Shown: one piece after another, positions 10,933-21,844 of the stretch
Numbering within the stretch: the first letter of the stretch is position 1
Layout: each line of letters begins with the position of its first letter
Origin: Escherichia coli
GTDB lineage: Bacteria > Pseudomonadota > Gammaproteobacteria > Enterobacterales > Enterobacteriaceae
Reading direction: 5' to 3' (one strand)
Assembly: GCF_048403405.1 (NCBI RefSeq)
Contig: NZ_CP183129.1
Length of the DNA stretch: 64,000 bases
Made by a program: the position numbers and the translations under genes
The notes under the pieces: model-generated
What the model saw: the letters and a program-made list of their open reading frames with translations, nothing else
What the model was told of the DNA's origin: nothing
Database searches by the model: none

Positions 10933-11169
10933 TTAAACATTTATAAGCGTTATAAATGGGTGGAACCTGTAAAGACTTCTACTCATTTATATTCTTTGTC
11001 GCCTCTAAAAAACCTCCATTTTGCCCATCCTGGACTAATCATTATCATTTTCTACAAATTCTGTGGTGTTAATTTTTCGTTGGAGTGAAAATTATTGCGG
11101 TGAAATTTGGTAGATTTTAGTTTGAATAGAGTTATTTTAAATATTTATCTTTTTAATCAATGGATTAAA

Positions 11170-11270
11170 TGCTCTTTAACATAATGGATGTGTTGTTTGT
11201 GTGATCCTGTAAAGTTGGTAGATTGTGACTGGCTTAAAAAATCATTAATTAATAATAGGTTATGTTTAGA
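11170..11270 (+). promoter_or_regulatory. CRISPR leader (AT-rich) of the queE-proximal array
   Basis: AT-rich sequence directly upstream of repeat 1; contains GTTGGTAGATTGT (about 11214-11226) 57 nt before the first repeat, the same motif and spacing as upstream of the cas2-proximal array. Confidence 0.7.
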
Positions 11271-12031
11271 GTGTTCCCCGCGCCAGCGGGGATAAACCGC
11301 GTTCAGCGTTGCTGGGCTGCGCAATGGACTGGTGTTCCCCGCGCCAGCGGGGATAAACCGCGGAGTTTTCACGGAACGCACAGCGAATTATGGTGTTCCC
11401 CGCGCCAGCGGGGATAAACCGCCGATAAATTTTCGCCCCGTTTCCAGCGCCGCGTGTTCCCCGCGCCAGCGGGGATAAACCGTTCAAACTGTAGGGATCG
11501 GCAATGGTGCCGAAGTGTTCCCCGCGCCAGCGGGGATAAACCGGGGCATTAGAATAACTTAAATGGAAAAAGAAAGTGTTCCCCGCGCCAGCGGGGATAA
11601 ACCGTCAGCCAGCACATAATTTTTATAGTCAGTATTGTGTTCCCCGCGCCAGCGGGGATAAACCGAAAGAGGTTATCGAGCGATATAACGCGTCCATGTG
11701 TTCCCCGCGCCAGCGGGGATAAACCGGTGCCTGGCGTCCATCTATTCACATGCCGCGCGTGTTCCCCGCGCCAGCGGGGATAAACCGTATTGGCGACGAT
11801 GGCATACCAGGACTACTCCGTGTTCCCCGCGCCAGCGGGGATAAACCGGCTCAGCGTCTGCTCTGGTGCCTCGCCCGTGAGTGTTCCCCGCGCCAGCGGG
11901 GATAAACCGGACCGTTACGGGCGCGTTCTTGGACTTGTTGAGTGTTCCCCACATCAGCGGGGATAAACCGGACACAGAGCGCCGCTATAGCGCCTATGCC
12001 AAGAGTTTCCCGCACCAGCGGGAATAAACCA
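11271..12031 (+). CRISPR. CRISPR array (CRISPR2.1-like): 13 repeats, 12 spacers of 32 nt
   Basis: 29-nt repeat GTGTTCCCCGCGCCAGCGGGGATAAACCG at 61-nt period starting 11271, 11332, 11393 ... 12003; repeat 12 degenerate (CCCCACATCAGCGGGG), terminal repeat 13 degenerate (GAGTTTCCCGCACCAGCGGGAATAAACCA). Frame anchored on ORF-track entries that translate repeats as RFIPAGAGNT/GLSPLARGT. Confidence 0.97.
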
Positions 12032-12485
12032 CCATATAACCCGTTATCTCTTTCTCAAGTTTTTATATTAGCTGTACTTGTAATAAGCAACATATCCACG
12101 TAACACCTCATGTTCAAAATAGTTCTCCATGTCAGAGAAGTTCACAATTATCGATACAAAAAATTAAATTTAATCAAAGTGTTATTTGTATGATTCTTAA
12201 ATCGTTAAGAAATTTTAATCTATTATTTTTTTAATATTGAATTAATGCCTGTTAATTTTTTCTTTAGAATAACAGTGTGTTTTTTAAGCTTGTTATTCAT
12301 TGATTAAGTAATAAATCTGGAAGTTTGTCTTTGTTTTGAGGCTAATGAGTGGTTTTACATAACCGTCTCTATAGGCTGTTGATGAATAGTTCTTATGAAT
12401 AAAGATATCCAGTTCATACTTTAAATGAAAATTGATAAAGTACGGTTTGCGTTGTCTTTTATTCTAAAGACATCGAGTGTAGTTA

Positions 12486-12624
12486 ATATTCCTTGTAAAA
12501 ACAGGGATAAACCGAACTAGTTAAAGTTTTTATTATGTTCCCTGCATCAGCGGGGATAAACCGGACTTGTTATCATTTTTTAAGTTGTCGAACTTATGTT
12601 CCCCACGTCAGCGGGGATAACCAT
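12486..12624 (+). CRISPR. Degenerate CRISPR remnant (CRISPR2.2-3-like), about 3 decayed repeat units
   Basis: Repeat-like units ending ACAGGGATAAACCG (12501-12514), ATGTTCCCTGCATCAGCGGGGATAAACCG (12535-12563) and ATGTTCCCCACGTCAGCGGGGATAACCA (12596-12623), separated from the main array by about 450 bp of AT-rich DNA. Confidence 0.7.
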
Positions 12625-12669
12625 TCAGGTATGTTCAGGCCGGGCAGTTTCCCGCCCGGTCTTCCTCAC

Positions 12670-14148
12670 TTACGCATTCGACCAGCTCTGGATCGAATCC
12701 GCATTCCCCAATTCCCCATGCATCACTTCATACGATTTTTTCAGGATTACATCAGTATGTTTGGTTAACTCCTTGAAAATGCCTTTATTCATCGCGTTGT
12801 AGCGTTTGGCGTTGCTCTCAACAGGCATAAAGATATCTTTCACGCGAACCATTTTGTCGACAGCCGTTGCGTAATCCGGGTATAGCCCCAGACCTACCGC
12901 CGTATTAATCGCTGCCCCCAGGCTTGCACAACCATTAATGGCGTTACGGCGTGCCGGAAGGTTGAACACGTCGGCAAAAATCTGCATAAACAGATCGCTG
13001 TTCGAACCGCCGCCAGTAATGATCACATGCTTTGCAAAGTGATTCATTTCATTACACATATTGTCGTAATTGTTCTTCAGCGTCAGCGCCACGCTTTCCA
13101 GTATCGAACGATATATCCATGCGTAATCCATGCTGGAATCAAAGCCAATCATAATCCCGCGTTTGTACGGTTCCCACGGATTGGTCAGCCAGTCCAGCAC
13201 CGTCATCAGACCATTACAGCCTGGCGGCACACAAGACGCTTTTTTGTTGAGCAAATCTTCCGGTGAAAGATCCTGTGCTTTGGCATCCTGAATTAACGAC
13301 TCGCCTAACATGTCGCGTAGCCAGCTCACCGTCCACATGCCTTTGCGAATACCGTAACCTTCATACAGCAAGGTTTGCGGAATAGAAGACATAATCGGCC
13401 AGTACGCTACCGGATCTTTCGGTAGTAATTTGCCGTTCATCATCAACGCGATGTAAGTGCCAAGAGAAATTACCGCAGTTTCATCATCCAGTAACCCGGC
13501 TCCCAGTGCTTCTACCGGTTTATCACTGGTGGTACAAACAACCGGCAGCCCAGCCGGGAAATGTGTCGCCAGCGCGGCTTGAGGAGTGATATGCCCAAGA
13601 ACAGTGCCCGGCATTTGCACATCAAACAGCATATGACGGGGGATATTAAACTTCTCCATGACTGCGGCATCTTCACTCCATGCCCAGGTCTTATAATCCA
13701 CCGGCCACTGACCAAAATAGTTGGCGATATTGTCTTTAAACTCGCCGGTTAAGCGATGCGTCAGATAACCCGAAAAAGAGGTGACATATGCCACGTCAGG
13801 ATTCGTATGTTCGTAAGGGCGTGTAACGCGTGCATCCTGCCAGCTAATCAACGGCGCAGCTGGCGTGCCATCGGCTTTCAATAACGCACGGCAGCAACGG
13901 ATGGATCCCAGACCAATACCGACAATATCTTCTTTATTTCCGGCAAACTGACTCATCAAATCGTGACCGGCAAAGCATAATGATGCCCATAAATCGTCGT
14001 CAGGATGTTCTGCGGTATCGGCATCTGGCGTGTGCATCGGCTGCAATAAGCCTTTGCCTTCGCAAACCACATTACCTTCCAGATCGTACATCACCACTTT
14101 TGTGCTCTGACTTCCACCATCAATCCCTATGATGTATTTTTTCGACAT
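12670..14148 (-). CDS. ygcE: FGGY-family carbohydrate kinase YgcE
   Basis: 492-aa ORF MSKKYIIGIDGGSQSTKVVMYDLEG... typical of FGGY sugar kinase N-terminus. Confidence 0.9.
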   Translation of the reverse strand: MSKKYIIGIDGGSQSTKVVMYDLEGNVVCEGKGLLQPMHTPDADTAEHPDDDLWASLCFAGHDLMSQFAGNKEDIVGIGLGSIRCCRALLKADGTPAAPLISWQDARVTRPYEHTNPDVAYVTSFSGYLTHRLTGEFKDNIANYFGQWPVDYKTWAWSEDAAVMEKFNIPRHMLFDVQMPGTVLGHITPQAALATHFPAGLPVVCTTSDKPVEALGAGLLDDETAVISLGTYIALMMNGKLLPKDPVAYWPIMSSIPQTLLYEGYGIRKGMWTVSWLRDMLGESLIQDAKAQDLSPEDLLNKKASCVPPGCNGLMTVLDWLTNPWEPYKRGIMIGFDSSMDYAWIYRSILESVALTLKNNYDNMCNEMNHFAKHVIITGGGSNSDLFMQIFADVFNLPARRNAINGCASLGAAINTAVGLGLYPDYATAVDKMVRVKDIFMPVESNAKRYNAMNKGIFKELTKHTDVILKKSYEVMHGELGNADSIQSWSNA

Positions 14149-14174: not shown

Positions 14175-15452
14175 TTACTTGCTGCTAGCCATAGCAGGGG
14201 CGCTATCAGCAGTACGAATTTTTTGGAACAGCAAAAAGGTAAAGACGATCACCATGGCAAGCGCCGCCATGCCCATCAGCCACATATTGCGGTAGGCTTC
14301 TGCAGCGGGCAGGGTGTCTTGCCAGTAGCCGATAATCGGGTAAACGAAGACATCCGGCAGGAATCCAATCACCGAACAAATACCTACCGTGGTGCCCATA
14401 ATGTAAGACGGTGTTCTCGCTTCGCCAGGGCAGGCCCAGTACAGCCCGCGTGAGGCGTAACAGGTGAATCCCAGCAGTAAAATCAGGCCAATCCCCATCG
14501 CGACCGATTGCGGGTTAGAGTTCGTGACGAGCAGGGCAGTTAACGCCAGCAAGCCGAGTACGGAAAGGATTTGGATCACGCGGGTAGGGGATTTCACTTT
14601 GCTGTAGGTGGAGATAATGCCACCAAGTGGGCCGCACAGTGCGCGGAAGATTTTGTTGATCACAATCCCCATGTAGCTCGCCGCCACCAGCGACATGCCG
14701 TACATTTCGGTCAGATAGTTGGTGGAGTAACTCAGAATGGCGTAGATGGTGAAGACACCAAAAATCACCATGCTGCAATACCAGGTGGTGCTGATGCGCA
14801 AAACAGCCAGGATGTCGCTAAGCTGGAATGACTGTTTTTCTTCGTTATTGGTATTGCGCAGGTTGTTGTTATCGCTAACAAAAAACCAACACAAAATGCC
14901 CAGCAGAATGTAAACCACACTATAGATAATAATGACCGTTTTCAGGCTGGCGCTGTCATCCGGTGCAAAGCGAGAAAAGACCCACATGGTAAACACCGCC
15001 AGCGACATTACACCGACGCCGCGCAGCCCTTCCATCCAGCCCATAATTTTCCCTTGCTCGCTATGATCGCCCAGCAACGAGGCGGCTTTAATCGACACCG
15101 ACCACAGCATTAAAATCGTCGTTATCGCAAAGGCGACCTGAATACAGAGCATTACCCACAGCGGTGGATATGTTGCCATTAACAGACCCAGTAATCCGGT
15201 AATGATCATCGCGGAAGTAATCATTTTGCGGTGTGAAAATTTATCGGCAATAACGCCGCTGGGGGCATAAAGAATAATAGCCGCAATACCAAAGGTACTC
15301 ATTATTAAACCTATCTCGGTATTGCTGAATCCCATAAATTTCGCCATGGGAATTTGATAAATATAACGTAAATAAGCCAGGTCGAAACTAACGCCGCCGC
15401 TAAAACTAATTATCGCGAGGGTTATCCAACGGCGATATGAGTTGTGTTGCAT
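14175..15452 (-). CDS. yqcE: MFS transporter YqcE
   Basis: 425-aa polytopic hydrophobic ORF upstream of and co-oriented with ygcE. Confidence 0.88.
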   Translation of the reverse strand: MQHNSYRRWITLAIISFSGGVSFDLAYLRYIYQIPMAKFMGFSNTEIGLIMSTFGIAAIILYAPSGVIADKFSHRKMITSAMIITGLLGLLMATYPPLWVMLCIQVAFAITTILMLWSVSIKAASLLGDHSEQGKIMGWMEGLRGVGVMSLAVFTMWVFSRFAPDDSASLKTVIIIYSVVYILLGILCWFFVSDNNNLRNTNNEEKQSFQLSDILAVLRISTTWYCSMVIFGVFTIYAILSYSTNYLTEMYGMSLVAASYMGIVINKIFRALCGPLGGIISTYSKVKSPTRVIQILSVLGLLALTALLVTNSNPQSVAMGIGLILLLGFTCYASRGLYWACPGEARTPSYIMGTTVGICSVIGFLPDVFVYPIIGYWQDTLPAAEAYRNMWLMGMAALAMVIVFTFLLFQKIRTADSAPAMASSK

Positions 15453-15626
15453 ATCGTATTCCCATTTGTAATAGACAAAAAAAGAGAAAAGTAAGCCGCC
15501 CTTTCAGGTGGATTACTTTTCTCAGGTCTCTAGTAATTGCAATAAGAAATAACATGGAAAGTAGTGGTGTTGTGTGAGAGTAATCACGCTTCTGCTTTTT
15601 AAAATTATTTGACAATTCGAATATCA

Positions 15627-15648
15627 CACTGTGATTACGATCACATTA
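15627..15648. promoter_or_regulatory. Candidate CRP site in the yqcE/ygcW divergent region
   Basis: TGTGA-TTACGA-TCACA at about 15630-15645 matches the CRP core consensus TGTGA-N6-TCACA. Confidence 0.55.
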
Positions 15649-15697
15649 GCGATTATGCCCTTATGATAAAAATTATCTCCAGTTACCAGAGATAATG

Positions 15698-15744
15698 AGA
15701 AAGGTAACTTCCCTCTCGCGGGGGAAGTTACCTTTCTTTTTTTG
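15698..15744 (+). terminator. Leader terminator/attenuator hairpin immediately upstream of the ygcW RBS
   Basis: AAAGGTAACTTCCC-TCTCGCGG-GGGAAGTTACCTTT (14-bp perfect stem) followed by CTTTTTTTG; upstream AGTTACC (15681-15687) is complementary to GGTAACT in the left arm, a possible antiterminator alternative. Confidence 0.65.
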
Positions 15745-15767
15745 CCTTACGGAAATTGGAGCTAACT

Positions 15768-16553
15768 ATGTCAATCGAATCTCTCAATGCGTTCTCAATG
15801 GATTTTTTCTCCCTGAAAGGTAAAACCGCAATTGTTACCGGCGGGAATAGCGGTTTAGGCCAGGCATTTGCCATGGCGCTGGCCAAAGCAGGCGCAAATA
15901 TCTTTATTCCAAGCTTCGTTAAAGATAACGGCGAAACAAAGGAAATGATTGAAAAACAGGGTGTTGAGGTGGACTTCATGCAGGTGGATATCACCGCAGA
16001 AGGCGCGCCGCAGAAGATAATCGCCGCCTGTTGCGAACGTTTCGGTACCGTCGATATTCTGATTAACAATGCCGGTATTTGTAAGCTGAATAAGGTGCTG
16101 GACTTCGGTCGTGCCGACTGGGACCCGATGATTGATGTGAACCTGACCGCCGCATTCGAGTTAAGCTATGAAGCTGCAAAAATTATGATCCCGCAGAAAA
16201 GCGGTAAAATCATTAATATCTGTTCATTATTCTCTTACTTAGGTGGACAATGGTCACCTGCATATTCTGCCACTAAACATGCTCTTGCCGGGTTCACCAA
16301 AGCTTATTGTGATGAACTAGGTCAATATAATATTCAGGTAAATGGTATTGCTCCGGGATATTACGCTACCGATATCACTCTGGCGACCCGTAGTAATCCA
16401 GAAACTAACCAGCGCGTTCTTGATCATATTCCGGCAAACCGTTGGGGCGATACTCAGGATTTAATGGGCGCAGCCGTATTCCTCGCAAGTCCGGCATCGA
16501 ATTATGTCAACGGACATTTATTAGTGGTTGATGGCGGTTATTTAGTGCGCTAA
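15768..16553 (+). CDS. ygcW: Short-chain dehydrogenase/reductase YgcW
   Basis: SDR fold TGGNSGLG; ATG at 15768 with GGAG RBS preferred over the TTG start at 15756 in the ORF track. Confidence 0.9.
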   Translation: MSIESLNAFSMDFFSLKGKTAIVTGGNSGLGQAFAMALAKAGANIFIPSFVKDNGETKEMIEKQGVEVDFMQVDITAEGAPQKIIAACCERFGTVDILINNAGICKLNKVLDFGRADWDPMIDVNLTAAFELSYEAAKIMIPQKSGKIINICSLFSYLGGQWSPAYSATKHALAGFTKAYCDELGQYNIQVNGIAPGYYATDITLATRSNPETNQRVLDHIPANRWGDTQDLMGAAVFLASPASNYVNGHLLVVDGGYLVR

Positions 16554-21268: not shown

Positions 21269-21844
21269 TCAAAGCAATTTTTTCGCTAGCGTCCAGACCC
21301 CGGTATTCGTGGTGGAAAGCGCCACAACACCCGCGTTAATCGCATTACGCGCATCTTCTTCATCGCACACCAGCCCGCCGGCAATCAGCGGTTGGCGGAT
21401 TTTCTCCGTCACCCAGCCCAGCACTTTGGGCATACAGCCTGGCAGGATCTCAATACAATCCGGATTCGATTGCGCAACTTGCTTATCAATGTTGTGAAAC
21501 GAAATCGAATCAACAATAAACAGGCGATGAATACAGAAAAAACCTTCCGCTCTTGCTGCTTTCAGCATCGATGCTTTCGTGCTGATAATGCCGTCCGCCT
21601 CAGTCACCAGTTTCAAAAACTGAATCACCACTTCTTTATTTGACGCGCCTTCCAGCAAATCAACATGAATAAAAGCATATTTTCCGGCGTTCTTAATCTT
21701 TTTAACGATATTACTGATGGTGCAGATATTGCCGTACAACACGGAAATAAACTGGCATTCAGAGTCGATTGCCAGTTGCAGGCTGGCATTATCTTTAACG
21801 GCAGCAATCACCGGATTCTGGCGGAGCAGGTGTAAGAGGGGCAT
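21269..21844 (-). CDS. ygcP: GlpP-family glycerol-3-phosphate-responsive antiterminator-like protein YgcP
   Basis: 191-aa ORF MPLLHLLRQNPVIAAVKDNASLQLAIDSECQFISVLYG... Confidence 0.8.
   Translation of the reverse strand: MPLLHLLRQNPVIAAVKDNASLQLAIDSECQFISVLYGNICTISNIVKKIKNAGKYAFIHVDLLEGASNKEVVIQFLKLVTEADGIISTKASMLKAARAEGFFCIHRLFIVDSISFHNIDKQVAQSNPDCIEILPGCMPKVLGWVTEKIRQPLIAGGLVCDEEDARNAINAGVVALSTTNTGVWTLAKKLL

Follow-up and report, generated by a model that had tools for sequence, protein, structure and literature searches.

Why would an intrinsic transcription terminator lie directly ahead of a gene when no other gene on the same strand precedes it? This question is raised by the 315-bp divergent promoter region between yqcE and ygcW in a 64,000-nucleotide stretch of Escherichia coli DNA (hereafter the window), which houses a strong hairpin and U-run shortly before the start of ygcW. 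The first-pass annotation of this DNA had read the hairpin as part of an attenuator, and had proposed as its regulator YgcP, a GlpP-family protein encoded in the same cluster. It had also noted that no same-strand gene lies ahead of the hairpin, and the upstream neighbor is indeed yqcE, on the minus strand. Our analysis indicates that the hairpin belongs to a genuine, conserved RNA element that is present twice in the window and that is very probably a conditional leader terminator in both places. The full model, in which CRP-activated transcription is followed by YgcP-dependent antitermination in response to an inferred effector, appears likely to us, with appreciably more room for doubt.

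A leader element in front of ygcW and yqcE

The motif was derived by comparing the upstream sequences of 80 ygcW orthologs. Its consensus reads (A/G)TTACY, 0 to 4 nt, AGAG, 3 to 5 nt, GAGAAARGTAAY, a variable upper stem and loop, RYTTTCTC and a T-run, with an element length of about 66 nt. A covariance model (R1) built from 44 diverse copies (alignment A3) was applied to 1.44 Mb of sequence, comprising the window and related loci, with true matches taken as those of at least 37.8 bits. Exactly two of these were found in the 64-kb window, both in the yqcE–ygcW intergenic region, and another 116 in 58 of the 80 ygcW-type loci (118 altogether). All lie in ygc-type clusters, and antisense readings of the hairpins scored at most 33 bits.

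The element ahead of ygcW (15678–15743, plus strand; 68.1 bits, E ~4e-11) comprises a 5' box, a GAG-rich loop, a terminator hairpin and a U-run. The box AGTTACC (15681–15687), which lies at or adjoining the predicted transcription start, is the candidate 5' strand of an antiterminator and is complementary to GGTAACT (15703–15709), a relationship pointed out at first pass and borne out by the sequence. Between the two strands is a purine-rich loop, AGAGATAATGAGAAA (15688–15702), with two GAG triplets 8 nt apart. GGTAACT would form the 3' strand of the antiterminator while contributing to the left arm of the terminator, which makes the two helices mutually exclusive. The terminator hairpin (15697–15738) has 19 pairs including G·U by consensus scan, with a perfect 14-bp core in which AAAGGTAACTTCCC (15700–15713) pairs with GGGAAGTTACCTTT (15722–15735), and it runs into seven T (15737–15743), the last of them 24 nt 5' of the ygcW ATG (15768). 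The perfect 14-bp stem and U-run originally described near the ygcW start are therefore both present. The suggested folding of 15620–15770 gave −50.4 kcal/mol, far more stable than shuffled sequences (−27.2 ± 3.3 kcal/mol; z = −7.0), none of 200 being as good.

The second copy, found by a both-strand pattern search, precedes yqcE on the minus strand (15477–15541; 69.8 bits). Its layout is AATTACT-AGAG-ACCT-GAGAAAAGTAAT, loop, CTTACTTTTCTC and T7; read from 15541 to 15477 on the minus strand it is TGCAATTACTAGAGACCTGAGAAAAGTAATCCACCTGAAAGGGCGGCTTACTTTTCTCTTTTTTT, stopping 24 nt 5' of the yqcE ATG. The first-pass annotation was right about the ygcW leader and missed this equally good copy, together with a second CRP-like site at 15573–15588. 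The two E. coli leaders are unlike in sequence (AGTTACC/GGTAACT versus AATTACT/AGTAAT), yet each is internally complementary, which favors pairing in RNA over a DNA operator common to both.

The U-runs differ between strains: that of ygcW has seven T in the window strain and nine in K-12, and that of yqcE (15477–15483, minus strand) has seven in the window strain and eight in K-12. Such differences in leader U-run length could alter the basal efficiency of termination.

Two mutually exclusive helices

The covariation analysis across orthologous leaders that had been suggested at first pass showed compensatory changes in both the terminator and the antiterminator. The terminator was recovered by RNAalifold, and in a model-based alignment of the 118 copies 94% of its cells were paired, with 10 of 16 pairs changed on both sides. 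Sequence is nearly fixed in its lower stem, GAGAAAAG/CTTTTCTC, and free to vary in its upper stem, where the changes covary. The antiterminator helix had been left out of the model that produced the alignment. Its seven pairs, AGTTACY:RGTAACT, were formed in 93% of cells, compared with 15–53% when the partner columns were slid (alignment A5), and the compensatory changes included 35 cells with A:U in place of G:C and 24 with C:G in place of U:A. Covariation links alignment column 39 to column 17, with which it pairs in the antiterminator, and to column 100, with which it pairs in the terminator, as expected if the two helices exclude each other.

When only the nascent 5' part of the leader is folded, the antiterminator is the most favorable structure, yet its stability is low (−6.4 kcal/mol in the ygcW leader and −1.4 kcal/mol in the yqcE leader) relative to that of the full leaders (−33.0 and −21.4 kcal/mol, respectively). 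This imbalance implies that termination is the default outcome and that read-through needs a stabilizing factor; the first-pass annotation had overlooked how much weaker the 7-bp antiterminator of ygcW is than the terminator (−6.4 versus −33.0 kcal/mol). The first AGAG of the purine-rich loop lies outside both helices, with both of its G's invariant and its second A nearly so. The invariant columns among the 44 diverse sequences were G12, G14, G20, A21, G22 and A23, and this conservation of unpaired AGAG points to a sequence-specific contact.

RNA 3' ends and promoters in E. coli

Term-seq data for MG1655 grown in LB medium to an optical density of 0.4 (Adams et al. 2021, eLife, PMC7815308) contain a 3' end upstream of each of the two genes. 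One, at 2900311(−), lies 38 nt 5' of ygcW, with 40,640 reads and an intrinsic-terminator score of 15.8; the other, at 2900556(+), lies 36 nt 5' of yqcE, with 1,557 reads and a score of 11.4. Both are outside Rho regions and carry no regulatory-element annotation in that study (PMC7815308). They correspond by homology to window position 15732 and, on the minus strand, to 15487, and on the MG1655 sequence both fall in the 3' arms of the hairpins (...GAAGUUACC-3' and ...GGCGGCUUACUUUU-3'). This result indicates that both leaders are transcribed and terminated in vivo, and that the ygcW transcript includes the hairpin rather than starting downstream of it. Together with the cross-phylum conservation and the compensatory changes in both helices, these ends uphold the attenuator layout proposed at first pass, and the conditional terminator model would account for two 'orphan' 3' ends in published E. 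coli data.

The 3' end of the ygcW leader has about 26-fold more reads than that of the yqcE leader. The corresponding RNA of about 54 nt is relatively abundant, and no such RNA is annotated at this position in RefSeq. A further 3' end in that Term-seq table falls within ygcN, in the operon carrying ygcP (MG1655 2892741(+), 1,077 reads; PMC7815308).

The sequence preceding each leader resembles a CRP-dependent promoter. CRP site 1, TGTGATTACGATCACA (15630–15645), is a perfect consensus that ends 55 nt before the stem, as the first-pass annotation had it, with 41.5 bp separating its centre from the ygcW start predicted downstream at ~15679(+). This site had earlier been predicted by PhyloScan; it coincides with a CRP peak from chromatin immunoprecipitation sequencing in enterotoxigenic E. 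coli (ETEC) H10407 (PMC4287617), and it bound CRP in vitro with a dissociation constant of 1.7 nM (PMC12871828). CRP-like site 2, TGTGAGAGTAATCACG (15573–15588), has one mismatch, is 57 bp from site 1, and has its centre likewise 41.5 bp 5' of where yqcE transcription is predicted to begin, at ~15539(−); four CRP-like matches of this quality occur in the whole window. The two divergent promoters are probably class II CRP-dependent, with site 2 the putative CRP site of the yqcE promoter. The predicted extended −10 element of the ygcW promoter is TGaTAAAAA (15664–15672, plus strand), part of a block TG(C/A/T)TAAAAA conserved across genera, and that of the yqcE promoter is TGTTATTTC (15546–15554, minus strand), seen on the plus strand as the conserved block AGAAATAACATG. 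In an eight-genus alignment of the intergenic region the leader motifs, CRP sites and −10 elements are conserved, site 2 being near-invariant, and the spacers between them are variable. The two predicted starts, equivalent to ~2900364(−) for ygcW and ~2900504(+) for yqcE in MG1655, fall within 1–2 nt of the A(G/A)TTAC box, and in Firmicutes the box follows a TATAAT-like hexamer by 6–7 nt. The available part of a Cappable-seq supplement lists no mapped start near 29003xx or 29005xx.

Distribution of the motif and its association with YgcP

The motif is found in Enterobacteriaceae, Yersiniaceae, Erwiniaceae, Budviciaceae, Vibrio, Clostridia, Negativicutes, Tissierellia and Bacilli, the Firmicutes hosts including Clostridia, Sporomusa, Tissierellia and Cohnella. 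Enterobacterales carry one copy ahead of ygcW and one ahead of yqcE. The Firmicutes clusters carry two or three, placed ahead of ygcW(-ygcE), of ygcU-ygcR-ygcQ and of genes for BCCT-family transporters. A Vibrio locus retrieved through its YgcP homolog (L088) has two copies in a divergent intergenic region (66.9 and 52.6 bits), and both there and in locus L064 the motif heads an operon that contains ygcP itself.

The proposed trans-acting antiterminator is YgcP (ygcP, 21269–21844, minus strand), encoded 5.5 kb away from the two leaders. Its assignment to the GlpP family at first pass holds over the full length of the domain: residues 12–184 match positions 1–173 of the 173 in PF04309 (E = 1.6e-62), and the protein matches PDB entry 3KTS, the Listeria GlpP, with E = 1.2e-27. 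The PF04309 relatives of solved structure (3KTS and 1VKF) are TIM-barrel proteins.

Among the 80 loci, 54 have a YgcP homolog within reach, and every one of these carries the motif; it is absent from 21 of the 26 other loci, many of which still carry the ygcW-ygcE-ygcU enzymes. The loci that have neither motif nor YgcP include Actinomycetota, Desulfobacterota, other Gammaproteobacteria and Halalkalibacter. Five loci have the motif and no YgcP: two lie on truncated contigs (L018 and L027), one has its match at the locus edge (L060), one has a weak match (L049), and in the fifth, from Serratia microhaemolytica, ygcP is on another contig (P0050). The motif therefore appears to follow the regulator and not the enzymes. 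The association persists across phyla and across rearrangements that place ygcP beside ygcE (Serratia, Pantoea) or beside ygcW (several Firmicutes). No regulator other than YgcP is annotated in the E. coli ygc cluster, and this, along with the co-occurrence in 54 of 54 loci, the several copies per cluster and a layout resembling that of glp leaders, lends indirect but strong support to the earlier suggestion that the leader is a plausible YgcP target.

Comparison of E. coli with Citrobacter and Klebsiella (loci L007–L029) gave identities of 96–97% for YgcP and 95–97% for YgcW, against 57–63% for YgcQ and 70–74% for YgcR; YgcU was also far more conserved than its neighbors. YgcP thus appears to be under unusually strong constraint.

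Several copies depart from the usual arrangement. An internal copy lies between ygcE and ygcU in six Firmicutes loci (L055 4470, L063 12390, L059 8714, L061 11443, L064 12394 and L054 12526); these have a much longer upper stem, with a total length of 84–86 nt in four of the six, and suggest a second checkpoint that would gate the flavoenzyme and electron-transfer flavoprotein (ETF) genes separately. At the lower end of the score range, the copy at L049 9911–9974, from a Buttiauxella metagenome-assembled genome (37.8 bits), has a degenerate U-run and precedes a lone ygcW paralog without a cluster, and that at L031 3097–3153 (38.4 bits) is missing the 5' box; both may be decaying or rearranged leaders.

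A scan of 15000–16200 against Rfam 15 (E ≤ 10) gave best scores of 11–24 bits, compared with gathering scores of 40–376, and the sub-threshold matches were generic hairpins such as microRNA precursors and PyrG_leader (20.8 versus 65). BLAST searches of E. coli genomes in 'distant' mode failed to recover even the paralogous ygcW copy and are thus uninformative about further genomic targets.

Alternative explanations

The unpaired AGAG and GAGAAA nucleotides, which are invariant or nearly so, the expression-platform-like layout of mutually exclusive helices and the several copies per cluster would also be consistent with a protein-independent riboswitch, whose 5' hairpin and purine loop would bind a metabolite and block the terminator. 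YgcP would then be an enzyme or accessory protein, as is conceivable given the TIM-barrel fold of its PF04309 relatives. However, the aptamer would be merely a stem of 6–7 bp with a loop of 14–20 nt, and the spacer between box and AGAG varies from 0 to 4 nt, leaving little by way of a ligand pocket. No Rfam family matches, and the absence of the motif from ygcW-ygcE-ygcU clusters that lack YgcP would be unexpected for a sensor of a pathway metabolite. GlpP of Bacillus subtilis, furthermore, is reported to bind glpD leader RNA in work by Glatz and Rutberg, as cited in two later papers (PMC9604022, PMC10573289). A riboswitch of this kind is in our judgment unlikely, and we give the same low weight to a riboswitch for a new ygc-pathway ligand with YgcP as a travelling TIM-barrel enzyme, or to leaders of about 54 nt that double as trans-acting small RNAs (sRNAs). 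Still less probable is that the short terminated leaders are functional trans-acting sRNAs or protein sponges made from CRP-dependent promoters, read-through being incidental. The abundance of the ygcW leader 3' end in LB (40,640 reads) and the resemblance of the hairpin and U-tail product to an Hfq-binding sRNA would fit such a role, but the element always immediately precedes the first gene of a ygc transcription unit and points the same way, in distant phyla and including copies before ygcU, and its conservation is centred on the terminator/antiterminator switch rather than on a seed-like single strand. An sRNA role would in any case be compatible with attenuation.

At the DNA level, the boxes AGTTACY...RGTAACT form an inverted repeat just past the promoter, a typical position for a repressor, and could be an operator for a dimeric factor encoded elsewhere, with the hairpins as constitutive terminators or insulators. 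Against this, the element is strand-specific, always with its U-run toward the downstream gene; the half-sites differ between the two copies of one genome while internal complementarity is kept; the spacing of the box to the rest varies by 0–4 nt; and G·U-type wobbles, which are neutral only at the RNA level, occur often (pair 7–42 is UG in 18 cells). The cluster encodes no DNA-binding regulator, and we consider an operator very unlikely. Least likely, finally, is a leader-peptide attenuator or the masking of the ygcW Shine-Dalgarno sequence by an upstream CUCC. The minimum free energy fold of 15620–15770 does pair CUCCAGUU (15676–15683) with AAUUGGAG (15755–15762), which contains the Shine-Dalgarno GGAG, and an AUG occurs at 15695 within the loop. 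However, the CUCC/GGAG pairing is restricted to E. coli and its close relatives, and the CUCC is placed no further downstream than the predicted start; sequestration was thus rejected as a conserved feature, limited as it is to these relatives and with its 5' strand probably partly upstream of the start. The leader peptide was likewise rejected, its AUG being missing from the yqcE, Serratia-type and Firmicutes copies. An additional hairpin upstream, TTATCTC/GAGATAA (15672–15696), was discarded as specific to E. coli.

Antitermination by YgcP is itself opposed by several observations. The antiterminator covariation rests on just two variable positions, and both start sites are predictions from conserved −10 elements. 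Shared ancestry inflates the co-occurrence of motif and YgcP, which may represent perhaps a handful of independent gains and losses, and in E. coli ygcP belongs to a distinct operon, ygcNOP, which lacks the motif. The Term-seq 3' ends fall within the 3' arm, 4–6 nt short of the long U-run; they are probably products trimmed back to the stable stem rather than exact termination points. We infer both the binding of YgcP to leader RNA and its effect on read-through. Moreover, R1 gave only 7.8–17 bits, no better than ordinary terminators, to the glpD/glpF leaders of four Bacillales used for comparison (glpP-glpF-glpK-glpD-type loci of Priestia, Lysinibacillus, Bacillus sp. and Paenibacillus). The grammar that these share with the ygc leaders (an AGTTAMT box, GAG-N5-GAGA and a terminator) was defined post hoc and is descriptive, with nine leader-only matches against about 0.8 in shuffles.

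A model for control of the ygc cluster

Under the antitermination model, each promoter would give a leader of about 65 nt beginning at or adjoining the conserved box A(G/A)UUACY. By default, GAGAAARGUAAY would pair with the downstream arm to form the strong intrinsic terminator, and transcription would stop before ygcW and yqcE. On induction, YgcP would bind the 5' part of the leader, that is, the box, the unpaired AGAG and the GAGAAA segment, and would stabilize the weak antiterminator of 6–7 bp (AGUUACC:GGUAACU), sequestering the left arm of the terminator. Polymerase would then read through into ygcWUSRQ and yqcE-ygcE. If the Bacillus pair of glycerol-3-phosphate and GlpK is a guide, the effector is probably a phosphorylated compound made by the FGGY kinase YgcE, and the transporter and kinase would thereby enter a positive feedback loop.

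The glpF, glpK and glpD genes are not in the ygc cluster. With this different gene set, the effector is probably not glycerol-3-phosphate itself; by the same analogy, it is probably another phosphorylated compound.

The first-pass annotation had called the circuit undescribed, and no description of the circuit or of the motif was found in Rfam or in the searchable literature, where queries on yqcE, ygcE, ygcU and ygcS returned nothing relevant and mostly false matches; the record holds only the CRP site and a pair of 3' ends without annotation. Few protein-dependent leader antitermination systems are, to our knowledge, established in E. coli K-12, and as far as we know RNA recognition by the GlpP family is poorly understood even in Bacillus. 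The ygc leaders would thus offer a testable model in which CRP and YgcP antitermination at two divergent leaders govern the whole ten-gene cluster. They also provide a cross-phylum RNA motif outside Rfam with defined positions (the AGUUACY box, AGAG, GAGAAA and the covarying pairs), and with it the first well-delimited candidate for the element that GlpP-family proteins recognize. Leader read-through could be used as a reporter to screen for the inducer and, through it, for what the pathway does.

Gene content of the locus

The window covers the E. coli ygc region in reversed orientation relative to K-12. Its yqcE–ygcW intergenic stretch matches that of strain ETEC1738 at every position (100% identity) and shares 96.6% identity with K-12-like strains. 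Behind the plus-strand leader, ygcW (15768–16553, plus strand), encoding a short-chain dehydrogenase/reductase (SDR), heads the operon ygcW-U-S-R-Q, and behind the second leader yqcE (14175–15452, minus strand), encoding a major facilitator superfamily (MFS) transporter, heads the operon yqcE-ygcE. The genes ygcN-ygcO-ygcP lie on the minus strand, convergent to ygcW-ygcU-ygcS-ygcR-ygcQ on the plus strand, and complete the annotated set (ygcN, O, P, Q, R, S, U and W, yqcE and ygcE). Clusters of this type encode an SDR, an FGGY kinase, a GlcD-like flavoenzyme, ETF, and MFS or BCCT transporters. The FGGY kinase YgcE scored below every NCBIfam cut-off. Tandem Repeats Finder reported no tandem-repeat array at 11000–12700.

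Some neighboring genes outside E. coli may hint at the substrate of the ygc pathway. In Firmicutes the motif also stands ahead of transporter genes of the BCCT (betaine/carnitine/choline-type) family; the sites of interest are in L054 (7624(−)), L059 (4454(−)/4707(+)), L061 (6866(−)/7049(+)), L064 (9546(−)), L080 (17834(+)) and L088 (10715–12286), the last being the Vibrio locus, in which a BCCT gene directly follows ygcP. One unit behind the motif in L080 includes a gene for a GldA-like glycerol dehydrogenase.

Comparison with known antitermination systems

The closest parallel is the GlpP system of Bacillus. B. subtilis GlpP, together with glycerol-3-phosphate, is reported to relieve the leader terminators of glpD, glpFK and glpTQ (PMC9604022, PMC10573289). 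The ygc and glp systems are alike in that the regulators belong to the same Pfam family, PF04309, an intrinsic terminator lies in the 5' leader just past the promoter, and each regulon has several such leaders, including those of transporter and kinase genes whose products would make the effector. Catabolite control is superimposed in both cases, through CcpA in Bacillus and through CRP for ygc. The Bacillales glpD/glpF leaders read AAGTTAATA, 5 to 9 nt, GGAGAAYNG and GAGAGNCCAC ahead of the terminator, so that they too have an AGTTAMTA-like 5' box and two GAG(A) about 8 nt apart (GAG-N5-GAGA) entering the left arm of the terminator. In contrast to the ygc box, which pairs with the left arm with covariation, nothing in the terminator arm of these leaders is complementary to their AAGTTAATA box. 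The failure of R1 on these leaders implies that ygc and glp leaders are distinct sequence families, and a single joint model for the two was rejected for want of a significant match. The ygc hosts also differ in including Gram-negative bacteria (E. coli, Vibrio) as well as Firmicutes, and the ygc gene set is without glpF, glpK or glpD.

Other leader systems share parts of this logic. In the ribonucleic antiterminators (RAT) of BglG, SacY and LicT (E. coli bgl, B. subtilis sac and lic), a weak antiterminator likewise overlaps the 5' arm of a strong terminator and needs a protein. However, these proteins have an unrelated fold and recognize a different RNA sequence, no CAT-PRD (BglG/SacY-type) protein is among the annotated ygc cluster genes, and no phosphorylation coupled to the phosphotransferase system would be expected for ygc. 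HutP and TRAP bind repeats of NAG triplets, as multimeric rings acting on 6–11 of them. The ygc leaders resemble their targets in having GAG triplets 6–8 nt apart beside or inside the 5' arm of the terminator, and this spacing suggests recognition of single-stranded triplets; they differ in having two triplets only and in the family of the protein. A system with the same logic as Bacillus GlpP, acting through a distinct RNA motif on a distinct set of genes, is in our view the best explanation for the paired leaders of the ygc cluster.

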